The translations under genes were made by a program, and so were the position numbers. Shown here piece by piece: positions 2,116-52,835 of a stretch of DNA of 64,000 nucleotides. Location of the stretch: IMG/VR virus record IMGVR_UViG_3300029235_000303, one strand, 5' to 3'. Origin of the DNA: a virus. The stretch's first letter is position 1. Every line of letters begins with the position of its first letter. Under the pieces are notes generated by a model, which searched no databases, had not been told where the DNA came from, and saw only the letters and a list, made by a program, of their open reading frames with translations.

Positions 2116-3207
2116 ATGTGCAAAATTAATGGAAAGAAGTTAAAGGAGATTAGAGAAAGAGAAGGTTTAACATTGCAGGATGTCGCTAAAGGTTGCGGAG
2201 TCTCTTACTCAACAATATCAAAGTATGAAAGCGAGATTAATAATCCATCTGATGCAACAGTAGATAAGATATGTCTGCTTTTAAAGATAAACAAAAATGA
2301 TATTGAAGTTGCTGATGTTGGATATAGTTTTACATCAGGCGAAGGTAAACTAACTGAAAAGATAAGAAAGAAGAAAGGCTTTATTCGTTATTCAACTCCA
2401 CGGAATACAGAAGAGTTTATACAGGCTCACTCAAATGCAGGAGAAAGTATGGAAATGAAAGAAGTTGATTGTGCATTAAAGAACTCTTTCAGTATTGCCT
2501 CAAAGCGATACATTCTTATCAATCCAACATTCATACATATACCAGATTGGCAGAGAGATACGGATATGGCAAAGGTGCAGGAAATAGCACAGTATTTTAA
2601 TGAAGATAAATTTGATCCAGTTAAAGTATATGTTAGGAATGGAAAATTATTTGTGGCAGATGGAGCACATAGAGTTGTTGCATTTGTAATCAATGGAGAA
2701 ATAAAAATGCTTGTTGAAGTGCTTAATTGTTCAGAATATGAGGCAATTCTTACATTTTTAGGACAGCAATCTGCTAGGAAGTCGATGAGTGTAGCTGATA
2801 CATATAGAGCAGGTGTAAAGGCAAATATAAGAGAATATATAGAGTTTAAAAATTTATTTGAATCATACAATATTCAAATTGTAACCGATGATAATAAACT
2901 TGAAAACCCAATAGGCAAAGTTGCACCATCAAGAGAATTATTAAGAATGGCTAAGAATAATACGGAATTATTAGAACTCATAATCAAGACAATTAAAGCA
3001 ATTGATTGGACAGGAAGTGAAAAGAGTGCATTTACACTTAGGCTGTTCCAGATATTCAAGAAACTGTTTGCAAATTATGAAAAGAATACAGTTATTGAAG
3101 GACTTCTTGAAAACTGCAAGGGAGCTTCATATTTTGAAAATAAGATTGCACCTGTTAAGAGTAATGCTGAAATGTATGATATTTTGGCAAAGGCAATTTG
3201 TGAATAA
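2116..3207 (+). CDS. HTH (XRE) domain fused to ParB-like nuclease domain protein
   Basis: N-terminal LTLQDVAKGCGVSYSTISKYE helix-turn-helix. Central ...DPVKVYVRNGKLFVADGAHRVVAF, the ParB/Srx DGxHR motif. Confidence 0.6.
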   Translation: MCKINGKKLKEIREREGLTLQDVAKGCGVSYSTISKYESEINNPSDATVDKICLLLKINKNDIEVADVGYSFTSGEGKLTEKIRKKKGFIRYSTPRNTEEFIQAHSNAGESMEMKEVDCALKNSFSIASKRYILINPTFIHIPDWQRDTDMAKVQEIAQYFNEDKFDPVKVYVRNGKLFVADGAHRVVAFVINGEIKMLVEVLNCSEYEAILTFLGQQSARKSMSVADTYRAGVKANIREYIEFKNLFESYNIQIVTDDNKLENPIGKVAPSRELLRMAKNNTELLELIIKTIKAIDWTGSEKSAFTLRLFQIFKKLFANYEKNTVIEGLLENCKGASYFENKIAPVKSNAEMYDILAKAICE

Positions 3208-3271
3208 GAGAACATATACATATAAAGCTGCACTATCAGGCTATACGGGTAACAGAAAGGAAGTGAGATTT

Positions 3272-3469
3272 ATGCATAATTTTAGAAAGTCAAAGCGAAT
3301 GCGTGACTTTGATATAGTTTTACGGAAGAATGGATATACACCGACAAGGTGCAAGGGAAGTCATTTCGTGTATATCAATCGTACAACGCATAGGATAATG
3401 CCTGTTAATAAGGATCTGAATGACATGGTAAGGCAGCGATTGATTAAAGAGTATAACTTGGAGGTGTAA
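3272..3469 (+). CDS. hicA: HicA-family toxin (mRNA interferase), orphan
   Basis: AAAGGAAGTGAG SD then ATG at 3272. 65 aa with ...KGSHFVYINRTTHRIMPVNKDLNDMVRQRLIKE... matching the HicA/YcfA signature. The long ORF 3002-3469 is an upstream extension. Confidence 0.65.
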   Translation: MHNFRKSKRMRDFDIVLRKNGYTPTRCKGSHFVYINRTTHRIMPVNKDLNDMVRQRLIKEYNLEV

Positions 3470-6590: not shown

Positions 6591-6860
6591 ATGTTAAATA
6601 TCAAATGGGATAACGGAGTTACAGGATATTTAAGCAAAAGCGAAAAAGAACTGTGTGAAAAGATTGATAGAGAAATCAGTGCTATCAATGCAGTAAGCAA
6701 AGCGGAAATATCTGTAGTAATCAGTATTGAAGGTGGCAATCAATTCCACATAAAGAAAGATACTGGTTCATTGATTGGATATATGAACGCAGAACAATGT
6801 TGGTATGCATTGAAGGGAATTATGACAAGTTTGTTATACATGGAAAGGCAGGTTGATTAG
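6591..6860 (+). CDS. hypothetical protein
   Basis: GGAGATGGTATAG then ATG. Confidence 0.4.
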   Translation: MLNIKWDNGVTGYLSKSEKELCEKIDREISAINAVSKAEISVVISIEGGNQFHIKKDTGSLIGYMNAEQCWYALKGIMTSLLYMERQVD

Positions 6861-6861
6861 T

Positions 6862-7821
6862 ATGAAATATACAATAGATACATTAAGAGAGATTAACGCA
6901 AGATTTTGTGGTTCGCATATACTTATGAATTACGATGTAGATAAGGCAAATATGTATGTTGAACTTATAGAAAATACAAGGTCTGAAAAGAGTCCAAGTG
7001 TAGGTGATTGCGTTAGATATACAAATGAATATGGAGATTACTATGGAGCAGCTCATATTGAAAAAGCAGATGCGAATGAAATTTATATCTGTGAACGACC
7101 ATATACACCTTTTATCCATGAATACGAAGGCAGAATTAATTGTAATACAAGTGGTGGAGCATGGACACATTTACCAACAAGAGAACTGAAATATATAGGT
7201 AAAATTGAAAAGAGATTTTGTGATTGGGGTAATTGTGGAGGCTGTGCAGATGGTGCTATTGATTTTATAGCAGAAGTAAGTTTATGGGAATATGTAGATA
7301 GTAAAAATCCTTTTGTAAGTGAAAATGGATATAAGTTCACAACAAAGGATTTTGATAAACAGTATATATCATTCAATCCTGAAGATAATTCACCTTATGT
7401 ATATTTGGGAGATAGTAATGCATGGAAAAGCAAAACAGATTTATATGCTTATCTAAGAACATACAGAGCAGAGATTTTCGAAGGACATTGGCAGAATCAG
7501 TTTATTGTATGGACTTGGAAAGAGAAACAGCATCATGTATCACCAACAGAATTTGATAGTCTTAAATTAGTAGAAGATACATTCCTGATGAATGGTGACA
7601 TCATGAGATGTAAAAGAAAATATGATGAAATTACTCATACTGTACACACATATTATGTTTGGTATTGGGATGATCCAACTAAAGACTTCTTTGAGGCAAG
7701 TGCGGAACAGAATAAAATAAGAGAAAAATATTATACACTTGATAGAAAAACTCCAACATATATTGTTGCAAGAGAAGAAATAAAGTCTGGAATTGAAATT
7801 TCAAAACATAAGGAGGTGTAA
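6862..7821 (+). CDS. hypothetical protein (Cys-rich)
   Basis: ATG at 6862; 320 aa. Confidence 0.45.
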   Translation: MKYTIDTLREINARFCGSHILMNYDVDKANMYVELIENTRSEKSPSVGDCVRYTNEYGDYYGAAHIEKADANEIYICERPYTPFIHEYEGRINCNTSGGAWTHLPTRELKYIGKIEKRFCDWGNCGGCADGAIDFIAEVSLWEYVDSKNPFVSENGYKFTTKDFDKQYISFNPEDNSPYVYLGDSNAWKSKTDLYAYLRTYRAEIFEGHWQNQFIVWTWKEKQHHVSPTEFDSLKLVEDTFLMNGDIMRCKRKYDEITHTVHTYYVWYWDDPTKDFFEASAEQNKIREKYYTLDRKTPTYIVAREEIKSGIEISKHKEV

Positions 7822-11445: not shown

Positions 11446-11631
11446 ATGGTATGTGTAAAAATATTAGGAATTGTAATCAAACATGGAAAGAATGATGTTG
11501 GTTATTGGGAAGGATTTAATCTTACTGAAGCCGAAGAAAATGCAATCTGGAATATCCTTAGTAAACATGATTCAGAAGGTTGTTCTTTGAGAGGGACACC
11601 AAAAGAAATCGCAGAAGAGATTGGAGAGTGA
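11446..11631 (+). CDS. hypothetical protein
   Basis: GGAGGTGTAGGT then ATG. Confidence 0.4.
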   Translation: MVCVKILGIVIKHGKNDVGYWEGFNLTEAEENAIWNILSKHDSEGCSLRGTPKEIAEEIGE

Positions 11632-11636
11632 TAAAT

Positions 11637-12065
11637 ATGGAAGAGAAAATTACTACAACAGAAAATTTAGCAACAGAACTTTTGGGATGTATGGGTTCGG
11701 CAATAGTAGATTATGGAAATTATACTATTGCAGTTTGGGAACATTGCCATAAGGGAAGCATTGCAGAGATTTATAAGCTGATTGAGATGCCAAAGGAATA
11801 TGAACTAGGAAGATGTGAATGTAAGATTTCAAGAATTGAAAGAAAAGAAAGTTTTGAAGATCCGGGACACGCAATGAAATGGGCGCTTGATAAAGTAGTA
11901 AATGGAAATATGGAATACATTAAGCAAGAAGAACTACCTAAGTATTGGAAAACAAAAGCCATTTGTATCGAATTTGCAGATGGTTCTGATGCTTTAGCAC
12001 AAGAAAATGGATATACATTAGAACAATGTATGGAAATGACAGATGCTAAGTTCTTTTTAGATTAG
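11637..12065 (+). CDS. hypothetical protein
   Basis: TTGGAGAGTGATAAAT then ATG at 11637. Confidence 0.45.
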   Translation: MEEKITTTENLATELLGCMGSAIVDYGNYTIAVWEHCHKGSIAEIYKLIEMPKEYELGRCECKISRIERKESFEDPGHAMKWALDKVVNGNMEYIKQEELPKYWKTKAICIEFADGSDALAQENGYTLEQCMEMTDAKFFLD

Positions 12066-25201: not shown

Positions 25202-25483
25202 TTGAGTAGATATAAGAACGGAAATCCAAAACATGCAAGTCGATTCATATGTTTAAAATGTATGCAAGAAAATATGTTAGCAAGAGGAATTCAGCGTAAG
25301 AAACAACGTGAGAAATTTCATATTAAAGATCTTACTTGTATATTATGCGGTGGAATTGAAACTAAAAATATGGAAGTAAGGTATTGTGATGATTATAAAG
25401 AGATTTATACAAAAGCATTAGAGAAAAGAGAGAATTATTATACAGGAGATTTTAGAAAGGTGGTTGATAATTATGTGTTATAA
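25202..25483 (+). CDS. zinc-finger protein
   Basis: TTG start after AATGAGGTG; CLKC...CILCG. Confidence 0.35.
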   Translation: MSRYKNGNPKHASRFICLKCMQENMLARGIQRKKQREKFHIKDLTCILCGGIETKNMEVRYCDDYKEIYTKALEKRENYYTGDFRKVVDNYVL

Positions 25484-26453
25484 AATAGAAGTCCAAAATA
25501 AAAATGCAGAGAAGCTTAACAGGAAGTTGGATGAGTTGAATCTTCCTATATATACGAGAAAATATTTCACTGTTAAAATTGAAAGCAAAGCAGGTGCATT
25601 AAATTATCTTGGAGTTATTGTAGATTTGCTCAATTGGTTTATTGAAGAGAAACTTATTAATAAAACAAATATTTCAGATATTGAGCCATCGGATTTTACA
25701 GATATCATGGCAGAAGATATTACATTATATTTAAAGACAAAAGAACAAAATGGAATGTCGCCAACTACATTAGAAACAAGGAAACATATTATAAGTAGCT
25801 TTTGGGATTATATGAGTAGAGTAAAGGGAACTGAAATTAAAGATGGATTCTTTAAAGATGTAACCTATAAGGGAATTCCATCTGGAAATAATTTAACAAA
25901 AAAACTTCCAACAGAAAAGCAGCTTAATGATATGGAAGAGAAAATAATGTGGAAAAAGGATGAATGTGTAAGAAATAGGAATATTGCTATCTTTCGAGTG
26001 TTAAGAGGAACTGGAATAAGAGAATCTGAACTTGCAGGTTTAGATTTGTCTAATTTGCATTTAAAAGAAGAAATGCCATACATTACTATTCTTGGCAAAG
26101 GTGTGTACAGAGAACTGCAAAATAGAACAGTATATCTTAGTGGATCTGCTTTAAAAGCATTAAGAGAATGGTTAGAATACAGAAGTACATTGAATAATGT
26201 TGTAGACAAAGAAGCTGTGTTTATAAATAAAAACGGTACACGTACAACAGAAAGAAATATTAAACAGATATTTGAAAATTATGGCAATGGCATCACTCCA
26301 CATATGATGCGACATTATTATGCCAGTATAATGAACAGAAATGGAAATCTTGCATTTGTACAGCAACAGCTTGGACATAGTAGTGTAAATACGACAGTTA
26401 ATAATTATGCAAACGGAGCAGTGGGAATGAAAGATATATTAGACAATATGTGA
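25473..26453 (+). CDS. tyrosine recombinase / phage integrase
   Basis: GGTGGTTGATAATT then ATG. ...LRGTGIRESELAGL... and ...HMMRHYYASIMNRNGNLAFVQQQLGHSSVNTTVNNYA are tyrosine-recombinase boxes (R, H-x-x-R, Y). Confidence 0.8.
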   Translation: MCYKIEVQNKNAEKLNRKLDELNLPIYTRKYFTVKIESKAGALNYLGVIVDLLNWFIEEKLINKTNISDIEPSDFTDIMAEDITLYLKTKEQNGMSPTTLETRKHIISSFWDYMSRVKGTEIKDGFFKDVTYKGIPSGNNLTKKLPTEKQLNDMEEKIMWKKDECVRNRNIAIFRVLRGTGIRESELAGLDLSNLHLKEEMPYITILGKGVYRELQNRTVYLSGSALKALREWLEYRSTLNNVVDKEAVFINKNGTRTTERNIKQIFENYGNGITPHMMRHYYASIMNRNGNLAFVQQQLGHSSVNTTVNNYANGAVGMKDILDNM

Positions 26454-28725: not shown

Positions 28726-30948
28726 ATGATTAATAAAGAGATGATGAGGATTATTAATAGTAATCCTGAGATGATGAAAATCATTAATGATTATTCAGAT
28801 GATGAAAACAAAAAATTAAAAAAATTATGTCACAAGATTTGGCGTGGGAAGATTGATATGTATGAATATGATGATTTATATGATGTCGCTATACAATGCT
28901 TAATGGAATCTGTGTATAGTTTTAATTCAGAGAAAGCAAATTTTGAAACATATTTAACAGGAAACATTAAAAGAAAATTTGATACATGGATGCGAGATAA
29001 TAGATTTCGACTAAAAAGAAATAATCTTGTCACGGATGAAAAAGGAAAAATAATTTATGACGAAAACGGCACTCCAACGATAATTAAAAATATCTCATTA
29101 GATGCACATACGGAAGATGATAATAACTTAATAGAGAAATTAGATTCAGGAATAAATATAGAAGATGAATGTAAATTTAATTTTGATTCTGATGAAAAAG
29201 TAGAAAAGTTTCTCAATTCATTATCTAAAATACAAAAAAATATCTTGCTTATGCGGATGGAGGATTTTCCTTCTGAGAAAATCAAAGAAGAATTAGGTAT
29301 TTCTAATGGAGAATATAACAGTGCAATGAAAGCAATAAAAATGAACAAAGGGCTTTCGATGTTCTCAATAAATAAAAATGATGGTGGTTATAATATGGAG
29401 GTAAATATGGAAGATAGAATTATTGAAATTAGCGAATCTGAAAATTACAGAATGGATAAATATAGTATGTACTCGTTGTTACAAGATAAAAAAAATGGGG
29501 ATATGAATTGCAACTATATCTTGCAGCGTGAACCGTTTCAATGGAGTAAGGAAGAAGCAAATAGATATTTCTGTCGTATTCTTAGCAATCTTCCAATTCC
29601 TGAAATTATACTTTGTGAACAGAAGAAAAAGGGATTAACTATATCACATTTGATTGATGGATTGCAGAGACTTTCATATGCAGAAGCTTTTAAGGAGAAT
29701 CGAATTAAGATTGGTTCGGCAGGAGCGGAAAGACACTTAATTCAGTATAGAGATTATGTTTTAGATGATAATGGAAATCGTGTGCCTGATGAAGAAGGAT
29801 TTCCTGAGTATGAAATGAAAGTTTTTGATGTTATTGGAAAATATTATAAAGATTTACCAGATGAGTTAAAGAAAAGATTTAATAATTTTAATATTAATGT
29901 AACAAAGTTTTTTGATTGTACTGACGAGCAGATTGCCGATCATATTCGTGATTACAATAATCATGCAAGTATGAATAAAGAACAGGGTGGATTACTCAAC
30001 GTATCAGCCGATATTGCTGGACATATTAAAAAGATTTCTCAAAAAAATTCATTTTTCAAAAACTGCGGTAAGTTTACAAATAATAATTCAATTAAAGGAA
30101 AACTTGAAAGAGTTGTTGTTGAATCAATTATGTTGTTATTCTTTCGTGAATCGTGGAGAGCGAGTTTAGATTCGATTTATAAATTCGTCAATGAAAATAC
30201 AACAGAACAGCAATTTTTAAAATTGAATTCACAGTTTAACAGATTGGAACTAGCATTAGGTGATAATAACAAAGATTTATCAAAGGAATTATTTACACCT
30301 ACAACAATGCCAATGTGGATTTCAGTGTTTGATAAATTTACTACATATAATATAGAAGATAGTCGTTTCGTAGATTTCTTAAATGCATATAACATAGAAC
30401 TCAAAGACAAAGAAATCAATGGTATATCAATGGCTGACTTTAAGGATCAACAGACCAAGAAAAAGACAACTATTGTAGGTAAGATTGATTTACTTATAAG
30501 GCTTATGAATGATTTTTTACATATTGATACAACTGAAACAGAGAATAATATAGAGTCTTCTGATAATAAGGTAACAAATGATAATGAATCTGAACAGAAT
30601 ACGGGTTGTGATGATGAAATATTATCATTTGTTAAAGAAAATGTTGCCGATGATATAGAGGATATTGATATAAAGGAATACCAGGATTTCGTGGATGTGT
30701 ATTTAGATATAAATAATCCATTATATATACAATGCAAGGCAGCATTAATGGCATTAACAGCATATGCTTACAGAACCGAAAAGGATGTTGAATTGGCGAC
30801 CTGGTTGGAAAATTATCAGAAGAATGCTACTGATAAGAATTATAGTCCATCACAAGATGTTAATTATAAGTATATTAAGATGGATTTTGATAATTACATA
30901 AACTTCTTAAATAATGTGAAGAAAGGAGGGATAATTAATGTTAATTAA
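28726..30948 (+). CDS. sigma-70-family-like N-terminal domain fused to DUF262/ParB-like (GmrSD N-terminal type) domain protein
   Basis: N-terminus ...FETYLTGNIKRKFDTWMRDNR... (sigma region 2 FxTY) and ...IQKNILLMRMEDFPSEKIKEELGISNGEYNSAMKAI (region 4 HTH). From about aa 250, ...ILQREPFQWSKEE...HLIDGLQRLS, the DUF262 DGQQR-type motif. Internal GGAGGTAAAT-ATG at 29410 is in frame. Confidence 0.5.
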   Translation: MINKEMMRIINSNPEMMKIINDYSDDENKKLKKLCHKIWRGKIDMYEYDDLYDVAIQCLMESVYSFNSEKANFETYLTGNIKRKFDTWMRDNRFRLKRNNLVTDEKGKIIYDENGTPTIIKNISLDAHTEDDNNLIEKLDSGINIEDECKFNFDSDEKVEKFLNSLSKIQKNILLMRMEDFPSEKIKEELGISNGEYNSAMKAIKMNKGLSMFSINKNDGGYNMEVNMEDRIIEISESENYRMDKYSMYSLLQDKKNGDMNCNYILQREPFQWSKEEANRYFCRILSNLPIPEIILCEQKKKGLTISHLIDGLQRLSYAEAFKENRIKIGSAGAERHLIQYRDYVLDDNGNRVPDEEGFPEYEMKVFDVIGKYYKDLPDELKKRFNNFNINVTKFFDCTDEQIADHIRDYNNHASMNKEQGGLLNVSADIAGHIKKISQKNSFFKNCGKFTNNNSIKGKLERVVVESIMLLFFRESWRASLDSIYKFVNENTTEQQFLKLNSQFNRLELALGDNNKDLSKELFTPTTMPMWISVFDKFTTYNIEDSRFVDFLNAYNIELKDKEINGISMADFKDQQTKKKTTIVGKIDLLIRLMNDFLHIDTTETENNIESSDNKVTNDNESEQNTGCDDEILSFVKENVADDIEDIDIKEYQDFVDVYLDINNPLYIQCKAALMALTAYAYRTEKDVELATWLENYQKNATDKNYSPSQDVNYKYIKMDFDNYINFLNNVKKGGIINVN

Positions 30949-32487: not shown

Positions 32488-32565
32488 AATGGGCTGTGGT
32501 GAAGTGGTCAACACAACAGATTTTGATTCTGTCATTCGTGAGTTCAAGTCCCACCAGCCTAGTCT
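32488..32565 (+). other. tRNA-like element (imperfect; candidate tRNA-Gln UUG-like or att-site fragment)
   Basis: Perfect anticodon-arm-like hairpin ACAGA-TTTTGAT-TCTGT, canonical T-loop GTGAG-TTCAAGT-CCCAC, and acceptor-like pairing TGGGCTG/CAGCCTA, but no clean D-arm. A GC-rich island with atypical codons; 5' segment duplicated as GGGTGTGGTGAA / GGGCTGTGGTGAA. Confidence 0.3.
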
Positions 32566-34606: not shown

Positions 34607-34739
34607 ATGGAGAATATAACAGTAAAAACAATTAACAAAAATAAATATAAGAAAGAAGAGGTACAAAACATGGATGGATTTATGATGTTTAAGAAGGCTT
34701 TACAGAAGCACTTCGATGAAATGCAGAAAGAAGAAGACA

Positions 34740-35747
34740 ATGACAAAAGACAATTATAGTATTTATAAGCATACATCACCAAGCGGTAAATCTTATATAG
34801 GAATTACAAAGCAAGGAAAGAAAAGATTTGGTAAAGACGGAAATGGTTATAAAAAACAAAGAAAATTTTATAATGCTATTCAAAAATATGGGTGGGATAA
34901 TTTTAAACATGAAATTATAGAAGATAATTTATCTTTTGAACAAGCCTGTTTTGGTGAACAGCTATATATTGAAATTTATGATTCAATAAATAATGGGTAC
35001 AATATTGCAATTGGAGGAGAGGGTGTACAAGAAATAGGGAATAGAAAGGTTGTGCATTTCTCACAAGATTTAAAACCTGTAAACATTTTTAAATCAGTTT
35101 CATATTGTTCAAATATAGTAGGATTTAAAAGTATCACAACGATTAGTAATTGGTGCTATGATGGAAAACTTCACTGTGGATATTATTGGAAATTTTTAGA
35201 TGAATGTGAAAATGTAAAAATTGATTATGATTTATTTGATGATGTTATGGTGAATTATAATTATTTGAATTTTAATCCATATTCTGACAAAGAAGAAAAA
35301 ATTCATAATTCTCAGAAAGGCAAAAGAAGCAATAGTAAACGAAAAATAAATCAATATGCAATGGATGGAACTTATATACGAACATGGGATAGTATTATTG
35401 ATGCGGTTACATATTATAAGATGCCAAATGATTCAACAATTATAAGAGCAATAAAAAATAAGTACAATTGTTTTGGATACAGATGGACATATTACGATGG
35501 AAGTATTGCAGATATATTACCTAATATAACCAAGAATAAGAAAATCTTACAGTTTGATATAAATGAAGTTTTTATAAATAAATATAATAATTCCATACAA
35601 GCAGAAAAAGAAACTGGAATATCCAGAAAAAATATTACTAGAGCTTGCAGTGGTGGAAGAAAAACAGCTGGTGGGTATATATGGAGATATGAAGAAAATA
35701 TGTCTGATGAGGATCTGGATAAGGCACTTGCAGAATTAAGTGAGTAA
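34740..35747 (+). CDS. GIY-YIG homing endonuclease with C-terminal NUMOD-like HTH repeats
   Basis: ...YSIYKHTSPSGKSYIGITKQ...RFGK... (GIY...YIG), downstream NGYNIAIGGEG. C-terminal ...AEKETGISRKNITRACSGGRKTAGGYIWRY (NUMOD1-like). Start 34716 or 34740. Confidence 0.65.
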   Translation: MTKDNYSIYKHTSPSGKSYIGITKQGKKRFGKDGNGYKKQRKFYNAIQKYGWDNFKHEIIEDNLSFEQACFGEQLYIEIYDSINNGYNIAIGGEGVQEIGNRKVVHFSQDLKPVNIFKSVSYCSNIVGFKSITTISNWCYDGKLHCGYYWKFLDECENVKIDYDLFDDVMVNYNYLNFNPYSDKEEKIHNSQKGKRSNSKRKINQYAMDGTYIRTWDSIIDAVTYYKMPNDSTIIRAIKNKYNCFGYRWTYYDGSIADILPNITKNKKILQFDINEVFINKYNNSIQAEKETGISRKNITRACSGGRKTAGGYIWRYEENMSDEDLDKALAELSE

Positions 35748-35858: not shown

Positions 35859-36230
35859 ATGAAAAATAGAAATAGTTATGAACGATTAAAACGCATTCAG
35901 ACATCGTTATCTGAATTGTCAAAGAGTCTTGACGAACAGTATTGCAAGATGCGTCAGGAATGTATGGATGAAATTATTGAGGATAGAAAAGAATATGTGA
36001 CAAAGAAAAATGAAATGTATTCACTGTATGAGAAAATTTCTGAAAGCGATTCTATGAGAATGACATGGATTAAGAATAAATTACCATGGTATATTACAAA
36101 ATTTTGTAAGATTTCAAGTACAGAAATATCATTGAGAGATACAAGTATTTTAATTGGTGTAAATTTTGGAAAATCATATAGACCAAATTGTTATATTGAG
36201 ATTACACCAAGAGATATTGGATGGATTTAA
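35859..36230 (+). CDS. hypothetical protein
   Basis: TTGGAGGTTAAGAC then ATG. Confidence 0.4.
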   Translation: MKNRNSYERLKRIQTSLSELSKSLDEQYCKMRQECMDEIIEDRKEYVTKKNEMYSLYEKISESDSMRMTWIKNKLPWYITKFCKISSTEISLRDTSILIGVNFGKSYRPNCYIEITPRDIGWI

Positions 36231-36243
36231 GGAGAATAATACA

Positions 36244-36798
36244 ATGTCAAACTTATATGTATATCTAATATGCTCTCGTAACAAGGATAATAAGGATATT
36301 CCAAATTTCAAGGAACGAGCCGAGACAATCCTTGAATATAGAGAAAATGAAGATAAGGTAATTGATGCTTTTAAGAGTTTTGCAGTCAAAGGACTTACTG
36401 GCGAACAGACAAGGTTATACAGGTCAGTTAATTCAAGAAATGAAGAAAAAATCAGAGAAGAATTTATTATCCGTCTGTTGAGAGACAAACCAAGTATGAC
36501 ACAGCTTAATCGTACATTAGCATCCGTTGCACAGCAGGTACAAAATCGTGATGAGAGTAAATGGCTGTTTGATTTTGATGTGGATGATAGAGAAATGGCG
36601 GCTAATTTTCTTTCTGATATTAACCATTTTTCGGGAATTAAGCTCATTGATATGAAATGTCATAAGACTCCTCATGGCTATACTATTGTAGTTCCGCATG
36701 GTTTTGATACAAGAAAACTTATGGAAAAGTGGAAAGGTTATGATATTACATTAAAGAAAGATGGGCTGTTGTTTTTGGATATGATAACGAATAAGTGA
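36244..36798 (+). CDS. hypothetical protein (…KTPHGYTIVVPHGFD… motif)
   Basis: AAGGAGAATAATACA then ATG at 36244; track ORF 36166 is an extension. Confidence 0.4.
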   Translation: MSNLYVYLICSRNKDNKDIPNFKERAETILEYRENEDKVIDAFKSFAVKGLTGEQTRLYRSVNSRNEEKIREEFIIRLLRDKPSMTQLNRTLASVAQQVQNRDESKWLFDFDVDDREMAANFLSDINHFSGIKLIDMKCHKTPHGYTIVVPHGFDTRKLMEKWKGYDITLKKDGLLFLDMITNK

Positions 36799-36808
36799 GG
36801 TAAAATTG

Positions 36809-37252
36809 ATGAAATATAGAGAAGAAAATAAAGACTTGTTTACAGTACCAGAAGATTATTATTTAGCACATTGTATTAGTGCTGATTTTGGAATGGGTAA
36901 AGGGATTGTAGTTGAATTCAATAAAAGATTTGATATGAAACGAAAATTACAGACAAAATATCCAGATTATCTTAATCAGTATACTCATAAGAGAATTGGT
37001 GGTGACTGTCTATTAGAAGGTAGAGTATTAAATCTTATTACAAAAGAGAGATATTTTCACAAGCCAACAATCGTTACAATGAGACTTGCACTTGAAAAGA
37101 TGAAACAGATTTGTTTGGAGAATAATATCAAAAAGATTGCAATGCCTGTAATTGGTTGTGGTTTAGATAGGCTGAACTGGAATGATGTCTCAGAACAAAT
37201 TAAAAATGTTTTTGCAGATACGGATATTGAGATTTTAGTGTGTAAGAGGTGA
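36809..37252 (+). CDS. macro domain protein (OARD1/TARG1-like ADP-ribose processing)
   Basis: ...DLFTVPEDYYLAHCISADFGMGKGIVVEF... and ...IAMPVIGCGLDRLNWNDV... match the macro-domain ADP-ribose pocket motifs. Confidence 0.6.
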   Translation: MKYREENKDLFTVPEDYYLAHCISADFGMGKGIVVEFNKRFDMKRKLQTKYPDYLNQYTHKRIGGDCLLEGRVLNLITKERYFHKPTIVTMRLALEKMKQICLENNIKKIAMPVIGCGLDRLNWNDVSEQIKNVFADTDIEILVCKR

Positions 37253-37255
37253 ATT

Positions 37256-38029
37256 ATGGCAGTATTTGTAACAGGCGATATACATGGAAATCCTGTAAGA
37301 TTAAGTAAAGATAGTTTCTATGAACAGAAAGATTTCTCTGGAAATAAAGATGAGAACATTGTAATTATTCTTGGCGATTTTGGTCTTGTATGGAACAGAG
37401 ATGGTGAAAGCAAACAGGAAAAATATTGGTTGGATTGGTTAAATCAGAAATCATTCACAACTATATTTGTTGACGGAAATCACGAATGTTTTCCAAGAAT
37501 CTATAGTTATCCTATAAAAGAGTGGCGTGGTGGTAAGGTTCATGAAATTAGATCCAATGTATTACATTTAATGCGTGGCGAAGTGTTTACCATTGAAAAT
37601 AAGAAATTCTTTGCATTTGGTGGTGCATCAAGTCATGATATTCAGGATGGCATTCTTGATTACAATGACGAAGATTGGAGAGAAGAAGCCAAGAAGCTTG
37701 ATAAGCAAGGTAAGTATATGTATCGTATCAAGGATTTATCTTGGTGGAAAGAGGAATTGCCAACAGATGAAGAAATGCAGTATGGACTAGAGGTTTTAAA
37801 AGAAAATAACAATATAGTTGATTATATTATTACACATAGCCCTTCTACATCAGATTTGTATCTTATGGGTGGTAAAGGATTATATGAATCAGATATATTG
37901 ACTAATTATTTGGAAGAAGTGAAAGCTACAACTGAATACAAAAAACATCTGTTTGGTCATATGCATTTAAATAAGGCAATCAATGACAGAGATATTTGTT
38001 TGTATGAACAGATTGTTAGGATATTGTAA
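37256..38029 (+). CDS. calcineurin-like metallophosphoesterase
   Basis: ...VTGDIHGN..., ...ILGDFG..., ...VDGNHE... metal-ligand motifs in the canonical order. Confidence 0.65.
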   Translation: MAVFVTGDIHGNPVRLSKDSFYEQKDFSGNKDENIVIILGDFGLVWNRDGESKQEKYWLDWLNQKSFTTIFVDGNHECFPRIYSYPIKEWRGGKVHEIRSNVLHLMRGEVFTIENKKFFAFGGASSHDIQDGILDYNDEDWREEAKKLDKQGKYMYRIKDLSWWKEELPTDEEMQYGLEVLKENNNIVDYIITHSPSTSDLYLMGGKGLYESDILTNYLEEVKATTEYKKHLFGHMHLNKAINDRDICLYEQIVRIL

Positions 38030-38043
38030 AGTGAGGTGAGAAT

Positions 38044-38433
38044 GTGAAAATAAAAGATAAAATACGAAATAAATTAAGAACTTGGTTCTTTGAGACTGAA
38101 TTAAAGGACTTGCAAAAATCTACTATACAGATGCAAATGGCACGAAACCAATATTCAGACGCATATAGATTAGTCAATGATTGTCATCAATTAATAAATT
38201 CAATGATGGATGTCGGAACTGATATTCATTTACATAGCGACTATTCTTGGGCTGTTGTATGTATTAAAGGTCACCCAGAGTACGTATCATTTATGCCATT
38301 ATCATCTGGTGATGCTCGTGATGTAATCAGATTTTTACAACAATTCAAATATTCAGATAGAGTAATTGATTCCCCTTTTGCATTTAAAAATATGATTAAT
38401 GACCATATTATGGATAATCCATTTGTAAAGTAG
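38044..38433 (+). CDS. hypothetical protein
   Basis: AGTGAGGTGAGAAT then GTG. Confidence 0.35.
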   Translation: MKIKDKIRNKLRTWFFETELKDLQKSTIQMQMARNQYSDAYRLVNDCHQLINSMMDVGTDIHLHSDYSWAVVCIKGHPEYVSFMPLSSGDARDVIRFLQQFKYSDRVIDSPFAFKNMINDHIMDNPFVK

Positions 38434-38636: not shown

Positions 38637-39623
38637 TTGACAGAGAATAAAGAAAAAAATAATTATTGTGAGTTAAATGTATTAAGTTTATGCGATGGTA
38701 TGTCATGTGGACACATTGCATTAGAGAAAGCAGGATTTAATGTTGGTAAATATTTTGCATCAGAGATTAAGGACGTGGCAATTAAGGTAACAAGAGACAA
38801 CTATCCTGAAACAATTCACATTGGAGATGTGAACAAGATTACATATAAAGATGGTGTATTACATACAGAAGTCGGAGACTTTGAAACAGATATTGATATT
38901 GTAATGTTTGGTAGTCCTTGTCAGAGTTTTTCAAGAGCAATGATTAAAGAGAGAAAGATTGGTCTTGAAGATCCAGAACGTTCAGGTCTGTTTTATGAGT
39001 GCAATAGAGTATTGAAAGAAGTAAATCCAAAGTATTTCCTTATGGAAAATGTAGTGATGAAACCTGAAGATGAAGCCGTTATTAGTGAAATGATGGGAGT
39101 AAAACCTATCAGAATCAATTCTTCTCTTGTAGTAGGACAGCTTAGAGATAGATATTATTGGACTAATATTCCAGGAGTAACAGTTCCAGAAGATAAAGGA
39201 GTTACTTTACAAAGTGTACTCAATGATGGATATGTACCAAACGAGAAAGCAAAATGCCTTTGCAAGAATGATTCTCACGGATATTACAACGGCTGTTTTT
39301 GGACACCAATTAAGAGGTTTCACAGATTCTATTATAAGTCGTTTGGAACAATGGTGTTCCCATCGAAAGAGTATTTTGATAACTGTTTAGAGGTTACAAA
39401 GAGAATATTAGATGGAAGAAAATCTTCTGCAAAAATCTATGATGATTACAATGGTCATGATTTTGATGAAGCAAGATATTTATGGAAAGAAGAGAGAGCA
39501 AGATTGCAAGGAGTTCCAGAAGAATATGTAGAAAATATGACTGAAAAAGATGCGGCAGATGTTCTTGGTGATGGTTGGACTGTACCTGTAATCGCACACA
39601 TTTTCAGTTTTATGAAATTTTAA
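38637..39623 (+). CDS. DNA (cytosine-5)-methyltransferase
   Basis: Motif I LSLCDGMSCGHIAL, motif IV GSPCQSFS (PCQ), motif VI LMENVV. TTG start after AAAGGA. Confidence 0.8.
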   Translation: MTENKEKNNYCELNVLSLCDGMSCGHIALEKAGFNVGKYFASEIKDVAIKVTRDNYPETIHIGDVNKITYKDGVLHTEVGDFETDIDIVMFGSPCQSFSRAMIKERKIGLEDPERSGLFYECNRVLKEVNPKYFLMENVVMKPEDEAVISEMMGVKPIRINSSLVVGQLRDRYYWTNIPGVTVPEDKGVTLQSVLNDGYVPNEKAKCLCKNDSHGYYNGCFWTPIKRFHRFYYKSFGTMVFPSKEYFDNCLEVTKRILDGRKSSAKIYDDYNGHDFDEARYLWKEERARLQGVPEEYVENMTEKDAADVLGDGWTVPVIAHIFSFMKF

Positions 39624-42417: not shown

Positions 42418-43293
42418 ATGTTAGAGATTAACAAAATATACAATGAAGATTGCCTTGAAGGTATGAAAAAGATTGATGATAAATCGGTCGATTTCATCTT
42501 CACAGATCCACCTTATAATACGACTAATAATTCTTGGGAATGTGAAATGCCGTTAAATGATTATGTCGAGTTATCAGGACAATATTTCTATGAAACAGAT
42601 CTATTTAATTTGGCTCAAGTAACAAATAGTAGTCTTGAGTATACAAGAGATTGGTTTTATGAGAACAAAAAAGATGGTTTATGGACTCATTACAATCGAA
42701 TTATCAAAGATAATGGTTGCATTGCATTATGGGCGCAATCACCATTTGATAAGAGGCTCGCTTGTAGTAATGAAAAGCTATATCGCTATGAATGGATTAT
42801 CGAAAAGACCAAAGCAACTGGTCATCTAAATGCAAAGAAAATGCCTATGAAGGCACACGAAAATGTCTTGATTTTCTATAAGAAACTCCCTACATATAAT
42901 CCACAAATGACAGAAGGACATACGCCTGTTCATTCTTATACAAAGCATACGACAGATGGTAACTGTTATGGTGCTACAAAGACTGGTATTTCAGGTGGTG
43001 GCAGTACACAAAGATATCCAAGAGATGTTCTGCAGTTCAAGTGGGATACTCAGAAAAGTAGCTTACATCAGTGCCAAAAGCTTGTTGAAGCGTGTGAGTA
43101 TTTTATTAAGACATATACCAATCAAGGAGATTTAGTTCTTGATTCATGTGCAGGAAGTTGTACAACTGCAATTGCAGCTTTAAATACAGGTAGAAATTAC
43201 ATATGTTTTGAGAAAGATAAGGATATTTTTGAGGTTGGAAGTAAGAGAGTAGCTGAATATGCTAATCAAGATTTGTTGATGAGTGCTACATAA
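42418..43293 (+). CDS. DNA methyltransferase, N6-adenine/N4-cytosine (beta class, DPPY)
   Basis: N-terminal ...IYNEDCLEGMKKIDDKSVDFIFTDPPY... and C-terminal ...GDLVLDSCAGSCTTAIAA... (FxGxG SAM motif) in beta-class order. Confidence 0.8.
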   Translation: MLEINKIYNEDCLEGMKKIDDKSVDFIFTDPPYNTTNNSWECEMPLNDYVELSGQYFYETDLFNLAQVTNSSLEYTRDWFYENKKDGLWTHYNRIIKDNGCIALWAQSPFDKRLACSNEKLYRYEWIIEKTKATGHLNAKKMPMKAHENVLIFYKKLPTYNPQMTEGHTPVHSYTKHTTDGNCYGATKTGISGGGSTQRYPRDVLQFKWDTQKSSLHQCQKLVEACEYFIKTYTNQGDLVLDSCAGSCTTAIAALNTGRNYICFEKDKDIFEVGSKRVAEYANQDLLMSAT

Positions 43294-43616: not shown

Positions 43617-44348
43617 ATGGTATATCAAGGAAGTAAAAACAGGTTGGCAAAATTTTTAGTGCCGATTATTCAGAAGTATATTGATGATAATAATATTAAA
43701 ACTTACATAGAGCCTATGTGTGGTGGAGCTAATCTTATTGATAAGATTAAATGTGATAATAGAATTGGAGCAGATATTAACGAAGAGTTGATTGCTTTGT
43801 TGAAATATGCTCAGATAGACAACGGTTTATCTATTGCACCTGAAGTATGTACATTTGAACATTATGCAGAGGTTAGAGAGGACAGAAAACTTGGAACTCA
43901 TAAGTATTCGCCAGAATATATTGCATTGATTGGATATATGGCAAGCTATGGTGGCAGATACTTTGATGGTGGTTATGGTAGAGATTCAAAGGGTGGCAGG
44001 AGTATTTATAATGAGAGATTAAATAATTTCAAGGAACAAGCACCGAATTTGAATGATATTGAATTTATGTGCTGTGATTATAAGAATTTCTCAGATTATA
44101 AAAACTGTGTATTTTATTTTGATCCACCTTACAAAGATACAAAACAGTATTCTAAACAGTCAATTGACTACGATTCTTTTTACGATTTTCTTCGTAAACT
44201 TTCAGAGAACAATATAGTGTTGGTAAGTGAATATAATATGCCTAATGATTTTAAGTGTATTTGGCAGAAAGAGCGTAAAGTGTTGCAGAAGTCAGATAGA
44301 GTAACAGGCGAAAAAGCAGTAGAAAAGTTGTTTGAAATAAGAGAATAA
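43617..44348 (+). CDS. Dam-family (D12 class) N6-adenine DNA methyltransferase
   Basis: ...YQGSKNRLAKFLVPII... (compare the Dam KWAGGK region), ...EPMCGGANL..., ...FYFDPPYKDT. Confidence 0.7.
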   Translation: MVYQGSKNRLAKFLVPIIQKYIDDNNIKTYIEPMCGGANLIDKIKCDNRIGADINEELIALLKYAQIDNGLSIAPEVCTFEHYAEVREDRKLGTHKYSPEYIALIGYMASYGGRYFDGGYGRDSKGGRSIYNERLNNFKEQAPNLNDIEFMCCDYKNFSDYKNCVFYFDPPYKDTKQYSKQSIDYDSFYDFLRKLSENNIVLVSEYNMPNDFKCIWQKERKVLQKSDRVTGEKAVEKLFEIRE

Positions 44349-44901: not shown

Positions 44902-45738
44902 TTGAAAAATACATATATTAAATCGCCTCTAAATTATGTCGGAGGCAAGTATAAGTTACTACCAATCATTGTACCAATGTTCCCAGATAAGATAAATACT
45001 TTTGTGGATTTATTTGGTGGAGGTTTTAATGTTGGTATTAATGTAAATGCCGATCATATTATCTATAATGATATATGCAAACAGGTAGTTGGTTTTCTAA
45101 AATATTTACAAGGTTCAAATATTGAAGAAGTGCTACAGAAAATTGATTCATATATTGATAAGTATGAATTAACGAAAGAAAACAAAGAAGGATATTTACT
45201 GTTTAGAGAAGAATACAACATAGGTATCAAAGATCCAATTAAATTCTATACGCTTTTATGTTATGCGTTCAATAATCAAATCAGATTCAATTCCAAAGGT
45301 GAATATAATATGCCTTTTGGCAAAGATAGATCAAGTTTTAATCCCACTCTTAGACAAAAATTTATAGATTTTCACAAGCGACTAAATGAAATAGATTGTA
45401 GTTTCTTAAATATTCCATTTGAGAGATTTGATTTTTCTGATTTTATGGAAGGTGATTTTGTTTATGCAGATCCACCATATTTTAATTCTGTTGCTACATA
45501 CAATGAAAATGGTGGTTGGACAGAAGAAATGGAGAATAAATTACTAGAGACTCTTGATACTTTGAATGATAAAGGCGTTAAGTTTGCATTAAGTAATAAT
45601 CTCAAATATGATAATCCATTACTTGATAAATGGAAAGATAAATACATAGTTCATTATTTAAAACATGATTATAGCAACTGCAATTATCAGAAAAAGGACA
45701 AGAGTGCCGATTGCGAGGTATTAATCACAAATTATTAA
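44902..45738 (+). CDS. Dam-family (D12 class) N6-adenine DNA methyltransferase, second copy
   Basis: ...SPLNYVGGKYKLLPII..., ...DLFGGGFNVG..., ...VYADPPYFNS. TTG start. Confidence 0.7.
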   Translation: MKNTYIKSPLNYVGGKYKLLPIIVPMFPDKINTFVDLFGGGFNVGINVNADHIIYNDICKQVVGFLKYLQGSNIEEVLQKIDSYIDKYELTKENKEGYLLFREEYNIGIKDPIKFYTLLCYAFNNQIRFNSKGEYNMPFGKDRSSFNPTLRQKFIDFHKRLNEIDCSFLNIPFERFDFSDFMEGDFVYADPPYFNSVATYNENGGWTEEMENKLLETLDTLNDKGVKFALSNNLKYDNPLLDKWKDKYIVHYLKHDYSNCNYQKKDKSADCEVLITNY

Positions 45739-51938: not shown

Positions 51939-52835
51939 GTGAAATATACAGAGCGAAAAGATTACAACAAGGTAATAACAGTTAAACTTGTAATTCCAGG
52001 TGGCTGTAATGCGAAATGTCCGTTTTGTTACAATAAAGACAAAGATATGTCGTGTGATAAGCAACAGTTTTTAGATAATTTCATCGAATCACTTGATGAT
52101 ATTACAACAAGAATAGGTGATAAAAATCCTATATCAGTTGATATAACTGGTGGCGAACCAACTTTAGATCCTGAATATTTATCAAAAGTGTTTATCAAAT
52201 TGAAAGAGTTCAATATTAAATCAAAGGTTCTTAGAGTAACTATGACAACAAATGGCACTCATCTAAAAGAAGTAATTCCATATATGAAAGATGTTGTTGA
52301 TTATGTAAATATTTCAATTCACGATTGGCGACCAATAAGAAGAGAAGAAATACTTGGATTTTGTTTCAATGGGATTGACTACAAGGATATGATTCAGCAG
52401 CTTAACAATATTGGAATTACAGTATCAGCGTGTGCAGTTATATTTAAGAAAATTCCAAACTTTGTAAAGTGGAGAGACTTCTTCATTAATTGGGCGAAAG
52501 ATGTAGGGTTTATTGCGGTAAGATTTAGATGTGATGTTTTCTGGAATGATTCTGATATATTTGATTCTTATTTAACAGAGTCGATGAGTGAAACTGATAA
52601 ATTTGATGTTATTGATTATGAAAACACAACGGATTCTCATTGGTGTAGACTTCGCAGAAAAGATAAGATGAGAGTATTTTTCTTGCATGGTGTTTTAGAC
52701 ACTTCAATCAAAACAAAAGGTATTGAATATGTAATAGATACTGATGGTCACTGTTATTGTGATTATTACAGAAGGACTAAAGTAGAAGATTATCAATATG
52801 AAGTTGGAAAGATTTATGATGCAGTGAGTGATTAA
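51939..52835 (+). CDS. radical SAM protein
   Basis: ...VIPGGCNAKCPFCYN... (CxxxCxxC) and ...DITGGEPTLDPEY...; C-terminal extra Cys (HCYCDYY). GTG start after GAGGTGATGAA. Confidence 0.6.
   Translation: MKYTERKDYNKVITVKLVIPGGCNAKCPFCYNKDKDMSCDKQQFLDNFIESLDDITTRIGDKNPISVDITGGEPTLDPEYLSKVFIKLKEFNIKSKVLRVTMTTNGTHLKEVIPYMKDVVDYVNISIHDWRPIRREEILGFCFNGIDYKDMIQQLNNIGITVSACAVIFKKIPNFVKWRDFFINWAKDVGFIAVRFRCDVFWNDSDIFDSYLTESMSETDKFDVIDYENTTDSHWCRLRRKDKMRVFFLHGVLDTSIKTKGIEYVIDTDGHCYCDYYRRTKVEDYQYEVGKIYDAVSD

Follow-up and report, generated by a model that had tools for sequence, protein, structure and literature searches.

In the window analysed here, a 64,000-nucleotide stretch of virus DNA (IMG/VR record IMGVR_UViG_3300029235_000303), we identified a 147-aa protein that, from its sequence, is a macrodomain of the TARG1 class with an intact active site, encoded by the second of three consecutive plus-strand genes at positions 36244-38029. 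We favour, with moderate confidence, the interpretation that this stand-alone TARG1/OARD1 macrodomain is an exchangeable cassette of a hypervariable accessory region, an ADP-ribosylhydrolase acting as an orphan mimic of an antitoxin against ADP-ribose that the host imposes on phage nucleic acid. The orphan antitoxin-mimic role is favoured because TARG1 reverses the marks made by DarT and because the macrodomain AdfM does so in a phage. An earlier note on this DNA had read the three genes together as a possible counter-defence or RNA-repair module; a counter-defence role is plausible, with precedents in AdfM of phage PhiKZ (PMC13309987) and in the reversal of DarT damage by TARG1 (PMC8501950), but not as the property of a three-gene module. 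The three genes are:

36244-36798, plus strand: p184, 184 aa, PHROG family phrog_8839
36809-37252, plus strand: macrodomain, 147 aa, TARG1/OARD1-type, stand-alone, predicted ADP-ribosylhydrolase
37256-38029, plus strand: binuclear metallophosphoesterase (MPE), 257 aa, calcineurin-like superfamily

The coordinates and strand given for these open reading frames (ORFs) in the earlier note are correct, and the stretches that it quoted (AHCISADFGMGKGI, IGCGLDRLNW and KTPHGYTIVVPHGFD) are all found in the translations. With 1066, 2583 and 4434 database homologues at E<=1e-3 for p184, macrodomain and MPE, respectively, all three are real genes rather than chance ORFs. A megablast comparison with 50,697 phage records returned no match for the region. 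Each is preceded by a Shine-Dalgarno-like site (AGGAG before 36244, GAGGT before 36809 and GAGGTG before 37256), and the macrodomain ORF also has an in-frame TTG at 36806. The intergenic gaps are 10 nt between p184 and the macrodomain and 3 nt between the macrodomain and the MPE, the ribosome-binding site of which falls within the 3' end of the macrodomain gene. No promoter-like or terminator-like signals above background were found between the three genes, which lie close together and apparently share a transcript with a series of accessory genes.

The macrodomain and its predicted activity

A phmmer search against PDB sequences aligned residues 8-144 of the 147 to human OARD1/TARG1 (4j5r/4j5q/2eee/2l8r; E=2.6e-27), and identity to human TARG1 is 47% over 139 aa, the TARG1 sequence used for this figure agreeing with the alignment from the PDB search. 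The OARD1/TARG1-like macrodomain recognised in the earlier note is thereby upheld, its catalytic Lys and Asp are intact, and a non-macro fold for 36809-37252 is effectively excluded by sequence homology to solved structures rather than by a model. The protein is a single domain with no extra domain attached. Its score against the Pfam Macro model is 22.6 bits, narrowly above the cut-off of 22, and it also matches the PADLOC DarG model (E=4.9e-16, covering model positions 27-142 of 329) and the macrodomain part only of the NCBIfam DarG model (47 bits against a cut-off of 250).

The catalytic lysine, Lys79 (LITKERY; codon 37043-37045), aligns with K84 of TARG1, and the loop carrying Asp120 (IGCGLDRL; codon 37166-37168) is identical to that of TARG1. 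We take this Asp of the GCGLD loop to be the equivalent of TARG1 D125 and to be catalytic, the role of D125 having reportedly been described by Sharifi et al. in 2013. Glycine-rich loops for ADP-ribose are present at G28/G30/G32 (G-x-G-x-G) and at G116/G118, and both the LITK lysine and the GCGLD aspartate are retained by all aligned phage homologues, the most distant of which is 51% identical. From these features the macrodomain is apparently enzymatically active.

Comparison with characterised macrodomains places the protein nearest to TARG1. Human TARG1/OARD1 (C6orf130; ALC1-like class) is likewise a single domain of ~150 aa and has the Lys, the Asp and both glycine-rich loops in common with the phage protein, which differs in a small insertion around residues 43-50 and in its origin from a gut Clostridia phage or prophage. 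The N-terminal macrodomain of DarG is also homologous and uses the same catalytic lysine, which is K80 in T. aquaticus DarG (PMC8501950). The window protein is nonetheless no DarG: with 147 aa, as against ~330 aa in the model, it is missing the C-terminal domain that binds DarT, and it has no DarT neighbour, no darT ADP-ribosyltransferase gene being adjacent to it. AdfM (gp104) of PhiKZ is, like the window macrodomain, a stand-alone protein with no toxin partner; the two have a Thr-Lys (TK) motif in common, and the same mode of action, enzymatic removal of ADP-ribose from nucleic acid, is predicted for the window protein. However, AdfM is closest to DarG2, whereas the window protein is closest to TARG1 (E=2.6e-27, as against 4.5e-5 and 4e-3 for the DarG-type structures 5m3i and 5m31). 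Furthermore, the Asp loop reads GCANGGLD in AdfM and GCGLD in the window protein, at 26% identity between the two, and while AdfM operates in Pseudomonas in the context of a phage nucleus, the host of the window phage is a Firmicute and there is no phage-nucleus context. OARD1-like proteins of GenBank phages (Fusobacterium phage Fnu1, Bacillus phage G gp437 and Lactobacillus phages LP65 and LpeD) are 41-47% identical over their full length, that of Fnu1 being annotated as 'O-acetyl-ADP-ribose deacetylase 1-like'.

Under the favoured interpretation, the macrodomain gene would share its transcription with the surrounding genes, a long series of small genes and orphan DNA methyltransferases that all point one way, and its product would be used early in infection. 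The enzyme would hold ADP-ribose in its glycine-rich cleft and cut it off the acceptor by means of the TARG1-type pair of Lys79 and Asp120. Its substrate, for which family membership is the only guide, would most likely be ADP-ribose that a host ADP-ribosyltransferase has attached to phage nucleic acid, e.g. the thymidine-linked modification made on single-stranded DNA by DarT2-type enzymes. The same chemistry could extend to Asp/Glu side chains, to terminal phosphates of RNA or DNA, and to deacetylation of O-acetyl-ADP-ribose, and other ester-linked ADP-ribosylation may provide an alternative target. TARG1 itself strips DarT-made thymidine-linked ADP-ribose and rescues E. coli from DarT toxicity, which its K84A variant does not (PMC8501950), and its substrates include O-acetyl-ADP-ribose, Asp/Glu-linked ADP-ribose and ADP-ribosylated terminal phosphates of RNA and DNA (PMC8053099). 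In PhiKZ, AdfM strips DNA of the marks made by DarT2 and shields the phage, thereby defeating DarTG2 (PMC13309987). More generally, macrodomains occur in ~40% of medium-sized and 56% of jumbo phages, and are the most widespread viral domains processing ADP-ribose (PMC9503650).

Several points weigh against the orphan-antitoxin interpretation. TARG1-type enzymes are promiscuous, so that DNA, RNA, protein and small-molecule substrates are indistinguishable by sequence, and similarity to AdfM, the validated phage enzyme, is weak (pairwise E=2e-7 at the 26% identity given above). The early timing of expression is a presumption based on the surrounding genes. In addition, chromosomal homologues (46-49% identity) are found beside a Nudix gene in histidine-biosynthesis (his) operons of Oscillospiraceae, Ruminococcus and Ruminiclostridium, a context that points to a housekeeping role in the metabolism of ADP-ribose metabolites which the phage copy could have kept. 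Finally, the linkage of macrodomain and MPE within the lineage (odds ratio 13.5, p=1.8e-4, uncorrected for kinship) keeps some cooperation between the two enzymes alive.

The his-operon homologues may represent both the cellular source and the housekeeping role of the family. They account for about ten of 49 loci from GTDB genomes (among L136-L149), where the neighbours are HisB-, HisH- and HisA-like, together with a small Nudix-like gene, by sequence appearance only.

Neighbourhood turnover and the cargo slot after p184

Gene neighbourhoods were compared in (i) 76 IMG/VR loci centred on macrodomain homologues, (ii) 49 loci of GTDB species genomes with macrodomains of 45-81% identity, (iii) MPE-centred contigs of another phage group, and (iv) the isolated phages Fnu1, phage G and LpeD. 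Among the IMG/VR loci, the MPE directly follows the macrodomain in 27 of the 75 that could be evaluated, leaving 48 in which the macrodomain occurs without it; of 73 loci, 27 have p184 directly 5' of the macrodomain, and 37 have it no more than 5 kb away. Adjacency of macrodomain and MPE, with or without p184, is not kept across divergent lineages. Where the viral macrodomain is less than 88% identical, neither p184 nor MPE is a neighbour (0/14), and an HMM (hidden Markov model) search of the GTDB loci found neither MPE-family genes nor p184 within 5 kb (0/49). Contigs of data set (iii) carry the MPE with neither macrodomain nor p184, and in the three isolated phages the macrodomain has unrelated neighbours, with no adjoining MPE or p184.

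The reverse view, taken from 78 p184-centred loci of the same lineage, revealed an array of alternative genes directly after p184: a CCA-adding enzyme in 26, the macrodomain in 16, a sirtuin in seven, a 121-aa gene in six, the MPE in four, and assorted small genes in the remainder. The CCA-adding tRNA nucleotidyltransferase is a full-length protein of 457 aa with PolyA_pol head, tRNA_NucTran2_2 and HD domains (e.g. L161 4592-5965), and its occurrence in the position of the macrodomain suggests a tRNA-repair alternative among the cargos. The sirtuin is a CobB-type NAD-dependent deacylase (NCBIfam NF001752, 306 bits against a cut-off of 221). From this turnover of the gene after p184, together with the change of neighbours across the data sets, it follows that the slot is a mosaic cargo hotspot, not an operon of fixed membership. 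p184 is the conserved left-edge gene of this hotspot in the lineage; it is an unrelated phage protein of wide distribution that borders the cargo slot, with no demonstrable functional link to the macrodomain.

The variable stretch is framed by three further genes of the window:

35859-36230, plus strand: p123, 123 aa, optional cassette just 5' of p184
38044-38433, plus strand: p129, 129 aa, optional cassette 3' of the macrodomain and MPE
38637-39623, plus strand: orphan C5-cytosine DNA methyltransferase (Pfam DNA_methylase E=7.6e-31; phrog_116 E=4.2e-47)

p123 is 88-89% identical in the related loci L008-L013 and is elsewhere swapped for an unrelated 77-aa gene, while in many sister loci p129 is found behind the macrodomain, the MPE or the sirtuin, a 97-aa gene taking its place in others. 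Family and PDB searches gave no match for p123 and no significant match for p129. The C5-cytosine methyltransferase is the usual right-hand gene of the variable stretch, a Dcm-type gene being found at this position in most related loci, often as a different allele (26-36% identity).

These data also bear on the three-gene functional module that the earlier note had proposed, in one version of which p184 would be a toxin resembling ADP-ribosyltransferases, or else what the macrodomain acts on. The tight packing and apparent co-transcription of the genes are consistent with such a module, as are the co-occurrence of all three in 16 of 72 related viral loci and the conserved charged residues of p184, which suggest an enzyme. 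However, the MPE is present in 16 of 36 loci with p184 and in 10 of 36 without it, which is no clear association; the commonest gene after p184 in sister phages is the CCA-adding enzyme, most sister phages carrying p184 with no macrodomain; and p184 homologues of Streptococcus, Lactococcus 949-group and Aerococcus phages have neither macrodomain nor MPE nearby. Given also that the macrodomain lacks the MPE in 48/75 viral and 49/49 genome loci, and that the MPE occurs apart from the macrodomain in another phage group, the module is not supported, and we consider it very improbable. What remains of the idea is a linkage of macrodomain and MPE restricted to the lineage.

Within the lineage, nine loci carry both macrodomain and MPE, eight the macrodomain only, four the MPE only and 48 neither (odds ratio 13.5, Fisher p=1.8e-4, uncorrected for relatedness), and the junction between the two genes is always the same 3 nt, across MPEs of 86-100% identity. 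One explanation would be a two-enzyme pathway of RNA repair or ADP-ribose clean-up acting on nucleic-acid ends or ADP-ribose derivatives, in which the MPE would open 2',3'-cyclic or 2'-5' phosphodiester ends, or split ADP-ribose or its cyclic phosphate, and the macrodomain would then clear what a Tpt1-like or sirtuin-like step leaves behind, namely ADP-ribose or ADP-ribose 1''-phosphate. Apart from the linkage, the constant junction and the ribosome-binding site of the MPE inside the 3' end of the macrodomain gene, this pathway finds support in the RNA-end and NAD theme of the alternative cargos (the CCA-adding enzyme with its HD domain and the CobB-type sirtuin), and in the phage sirtuin, calcineurin-like and Nudix combinations that Aravind and colleagues placed in predicted RNA-repair neighbourhoods (PMC9503650). 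We keep it as an unlikely alternative because RNA- and NAD-related cargos fit the networks of NAD and ADP-ribose linked to RNA repair in phages (PMC9503650). Against it, the macrodomain occurs without the MPE not only in the 48 of 75 viral loci, but in all 14 divergent viral and all 49 genome loci, as well as in Fnu1, phage G and LpeD; the MPE is also found without the macrodomain; and the scanned ORFs of the window revealed no RNA ligase, polynucleotide kinase or Tpt1. Moreover, the linkage statistic takes no account of kinship and would be accounted for by one block inherited as a whole. The MPE is best described as a second cargo gene, often co-inherited with the macrodomain in this lineage and not needed by it.

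A broader version, which we regard as decidedly improbable, would treat the entire stretch from p184 to the Dcm-type gene as a swappable toolkit slot directed against host attacks on nucleic acids, where macrodomain and MPE would provide a previously undescribed two-step removal of ADP-ribose from RNA or DNA followed by healing of the end, and p184 would represent a new nucleic-acid-processing enzyme family anchoring the slot.

The sirtuin cargo raises another alternative to the orphan-antitoxin role, namely that the macrodomain is an O-acetyl-ADP-ribose deacetylase, or a hydrolase of ADP-ribose metabolites, acting after sirtuins in a metabolic or host-takeover function. The OARD1 family was first defined by activity on O-acetyl-ADP-ribose (PMC8053099), homologues in isolated phages are annotated accordingly, and the his-operon homologues beside a Nudix gene are also consistent with such a function. 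In sister phages the CobB-type deacylase occupies the same slot, and a few loci are ordered p184-SIR2-macrodomain. However, the window has no sirtuin, the two genes are mostly alternatives (seven sirtuin-first and 16 macrodomain-first loci, with a handful carrying both), and what a phage would gain from clearing O-acetyl-ADP-ribose is not evident; we regard this function as quite unlikely. In sister phages the sirtuin directly follows p184, and some of them also encode a bacterial-type PARG (PF10021) ~3-4 kb downstream (L001-L005 6561-7301; L008 9231-10016); the window has neither.

Upstream of the LpeD macrodomain, and directly adjacent to it, orf100 (L233 2809-3486) carries a GGCFKN...DVDVF motif resembling, by eye, the head of a Pol-beta/CCA-type nucleotidyltransferase; a PDB sequence search with this protein was without match.

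The metallophosphoesterase and p184

The calcineurin-like phosphoesterase recognised in the earlier note is confirmed by a Pfam match (PF00149, E=7.8e-12) and a complete metal site, and the protein also belongs to PHROG phrog_1649, 'metallo-phosphoesterase' (E=1.5e-35). All five metal-binding motifs (DxH, GD, GNH[ED], H and GHxH) and the MPE fold are present, and the metal-site residues D8, H10, D41, N75, H76, H194, H235 and H237 are invariant among 40 homologues. Searches of PDB sequences with the single sequence and with a profile gave no match. The AlphaFold2 (AF2) model has a predicted local distance difference test (pLDDT) score of 89.7, and the structures that it resembles most are those of Dbr1-like and other generic phosphodiesterases, at 10-18% identity. 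The protein has neither the GDxVDRG motif of PPP-type Ser/Thr protein phosphatases nor close structural similarity to lambda phosphatase or PP1, and from the model it is of the phosphodiesterase type rather than a PPP protein phosphatase. It has its fold and five motifs in common with Dbr1, MPPED2 and aq_1956-type MPEs, but lacks the C-terminal domain of Dbr1, keeps the Asp of motif I, and possesses its own conserved insertion at about residues 125-170 with invariant H127, D128, W163 and W164. Taken together, these features describe an active-looking phosphodiesterase, the 10-18% identity being too low for its substrate to be deduced.

With regard to function, the earlier note had suggested that the MPE might hydrolyse cyclic nucleotide signals; nothing specific was found in support of action on cyclic oligonucleotides, the structural neighbours being generic phosphodiesterases. 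A wider alternative, that the MPE on its own is a nuclease or phosphodiesterase directed against host DNA or nucleotide immune signals, independent of the macrodomain, appears possible though doubtful. The mycobacteriophage MPE Gp48 has been reported as a nuclease that damages host DNA and blunts host defence (PMC12287305), and the window MPE has relatives that travel alone in other phages. Conversely, there is no sequence-level kin among characterised enzymes, PDB searches being empty even with a profile, and the sole PADLOC match is partial and to an uncharacterised candidate family.

p184 belongs to a widespread unannotated family (phrog_8839, E=3.2e-32, labelled by PHROG as function unknown) which comprises 402 clusters at 50% identity (E<=1e-3) and has no Pfam, NCBIfam or PADLOC assignment. 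In a 121-sequence alignment K14, N16, R57 and Y59 are invariant, and S11, R12, D15, R25, E54, N63, R65, W107, D110, D112, T142, G145, G153, F154, D155 and D173 are conserved in at least 90% of sequences; a closer set of 16 sequences gives a similar picture. These residues make up the motifs SRNKDNK, GE..R.Y.S.N.R, W.FD.D, T.NG and GFD, together with D173, and the motif KTPHGY...HGFD, which the earlier note had singled out as unrecognised, forms part of a truly conserved family motif, TPNGYAVIVxHGFDTR. The conserved charged residues suggest that the family is enzyme-like.

Despite a very confident AF2 model (pLDDT 98; predicted template-modelling score, pTM, 0.90), no convincing match of p184 to a known fold was found. 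A BFVD search returned uncharacterised viral proteins only, PDB sequence searches with the single sequence and the family profile gave nothing useful, and no Pfam family was matched consistently across the 121 members. The sole domain fusion among the longer members, P0210 (308 aa) with a C-terminal DUF1653, is uninformative; a DUF1653 domain protein is also encoded in the window at 59305-59751.

Several assignments of p184 were considered and rejected. As a DarT-like ADP-ribosyltransferase or toxin it has no such fold match, and it mostly occurs without a macrodomain; as a 2H phosphoesterase or Tpt1 it lacks the HxT/S and Tpt1 motifs, and its alignment to the 2H cyclic phosphodiesterase 1fsi spans 68 residues only. 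A 184-aa protein upstream of the Fnu1 macrodomain, of the same length as p184, was excluded as a homologue by HMM search.

An attractive but tentative reading of p184, prompted by a DxD motif and by the context of a homologue in Streptococcus phage Javan74, is that of a minimal primase-like enzyme resembling archaeo-eukaryotic primases (AEPs). The DxD is present, D110 being conserved in at least 90% of sequences and D112 and D173 invariant in the closer 16-sequence set, but the candidate motif-II residue His152 varies (H, R or Q), and there is no sequence or profile match. In Javan74 (L006 2435-5543) the p184 homologue lies after a 750-aa PriCT-2 and AAA_25 helicase protein, which has no recognisable primase catalytic domain, and before RusA. 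More widely, homologues with no nearby macrodomain or MPE are found in replication modules of Streptococcus prophages, between the PriCT-helicase gene and RusA, and in Lactococcus 949-group and Aerococcus phages. These distant neighbourhoods were checked in annotated phages, where no common partner gene emerged; a search with the 16-sequence alignment gave loci of the same lineage only.

The phage lineage and other genes of the window

The window has a GC content of ~31%, with essentially all genes on the plus strand, and encodes an integrase (25464-26453), an AAA_24 replication-type ATPase and a member of a virion structural protein family. Near-identical sequences are IMG/VR viral contigs of roughly 85-250 kb, and homologues occur in prophage-like regions of Lachnospiraceae, Oscillospiraceae and Ruminococcus genomes. 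These contigs and the phage-type genes of the window place the macrodomain in a phage context. Genomes of the lineage, phages or prophages of gut Clostridia (Lachnospiraceae/Oscillospiraceae), measure roughly 150 kb.

That phage macrodomains are common, that OARD1-like ones have been annotated, and that the counter-defence principle has been demonstrated for AdfM is already known. Mildly new are the TARG1-like, rather than DarG2-like, enzyme lineage in phages of gut Clostridia, the cargo hotspot, where CCA-adding enzyme, sirtuin, macrodomain and MPE replace one another, and the unannotated, enzyme-like p184 family. Should the macrodomain act on DarT-modified DNA, the orphan-antitoxin strategy of AdfM, so far described from Pseudomonas jumbo phages, would reach temperate phages of dominant gut Clostridia, and ADP-ribosylation-based immunity would matter in the gut microbiome. 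The hotspot map is the more useful practical result, as it offers natural near-isogenic variants for matching cargo to host defence, and the p184 family, with ~400 clusters at 50% identity and a confident model, is a reasonable target for structural and functional work.

PHROG and Pfam scans of ~45 other ORFs of the window provided context and no partner gene; no sirtuin, PARG or ADP-ribosyltransferase partner was detected among the ORFs scanned. Four orphan DNA methyltransferases are encoded within 7 kb (38637-39623, 42418-43293, 43617-44348 and 44902-45738), comprising one C5-cytosine, one N6/N4 and two Dam-like D12-class enzymes, for which no restriction partner was detected. This arrangement fits an anti-restriction accessory or counter-defence region.

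Just upstream of the three genes, a GIY-YIG/NUMOD homing-endonuclease gene (34716-35747) occupies the site at which sister phages carry a 685-aa DUF8224 gene and a 129-aa gene. Comparison with L008 1468-3936 revealed remnants of both at 100% identity, namely the 21 N-terminal residues of the DUF8224 protein (34670-34732) and the 17 C-terminal residues of the 129-aa protein (35694-35744), and the interval 34670-35747 looks like a cassette replacement or homing scar. Also identified was an IS605 OrfB/TnpB gene with a Cas12f-like TNB domain (55895-57193), TnpB genes of sister phages being found at other positions of the accessory region (L003 and L010).

A single tRNA-Gln gene (anticodon TTG) is located on the plus strand at 32490-32562, ~3.7 kb upstream of the three genes. 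Further upstream, 28726-30948 encodes a 740-aa protein with a weak N-terminal match to sigma-70 region 2 and a GmrSD_N/NsnA-like (DUF262-type) domain, and a similar 730-aa gene is kept in sister loci (L005). Two proteins of ~155 aa, encoded at 108-578 and 3002-3469, possess C-terminal RelE-like (E=1.1e-7) and HicA-like (E=4.1e-5) toxin domains, respectively, behind N-terminal extensions of ~90-100 aa, the HicA-like match, at 24 bits, lying below the Pfam cut-off of 27. Finally, genes for a DUF4121 protein (6853-7821, E=1.5e-49), a protein with an Nmad4 'nucleotide modification associated' domain (11580-12065, E=2.3e-17) and a radical-SAM protein (51939-52835) hint at a capacity for DNA or nucleotide modification elsewhere in the element.

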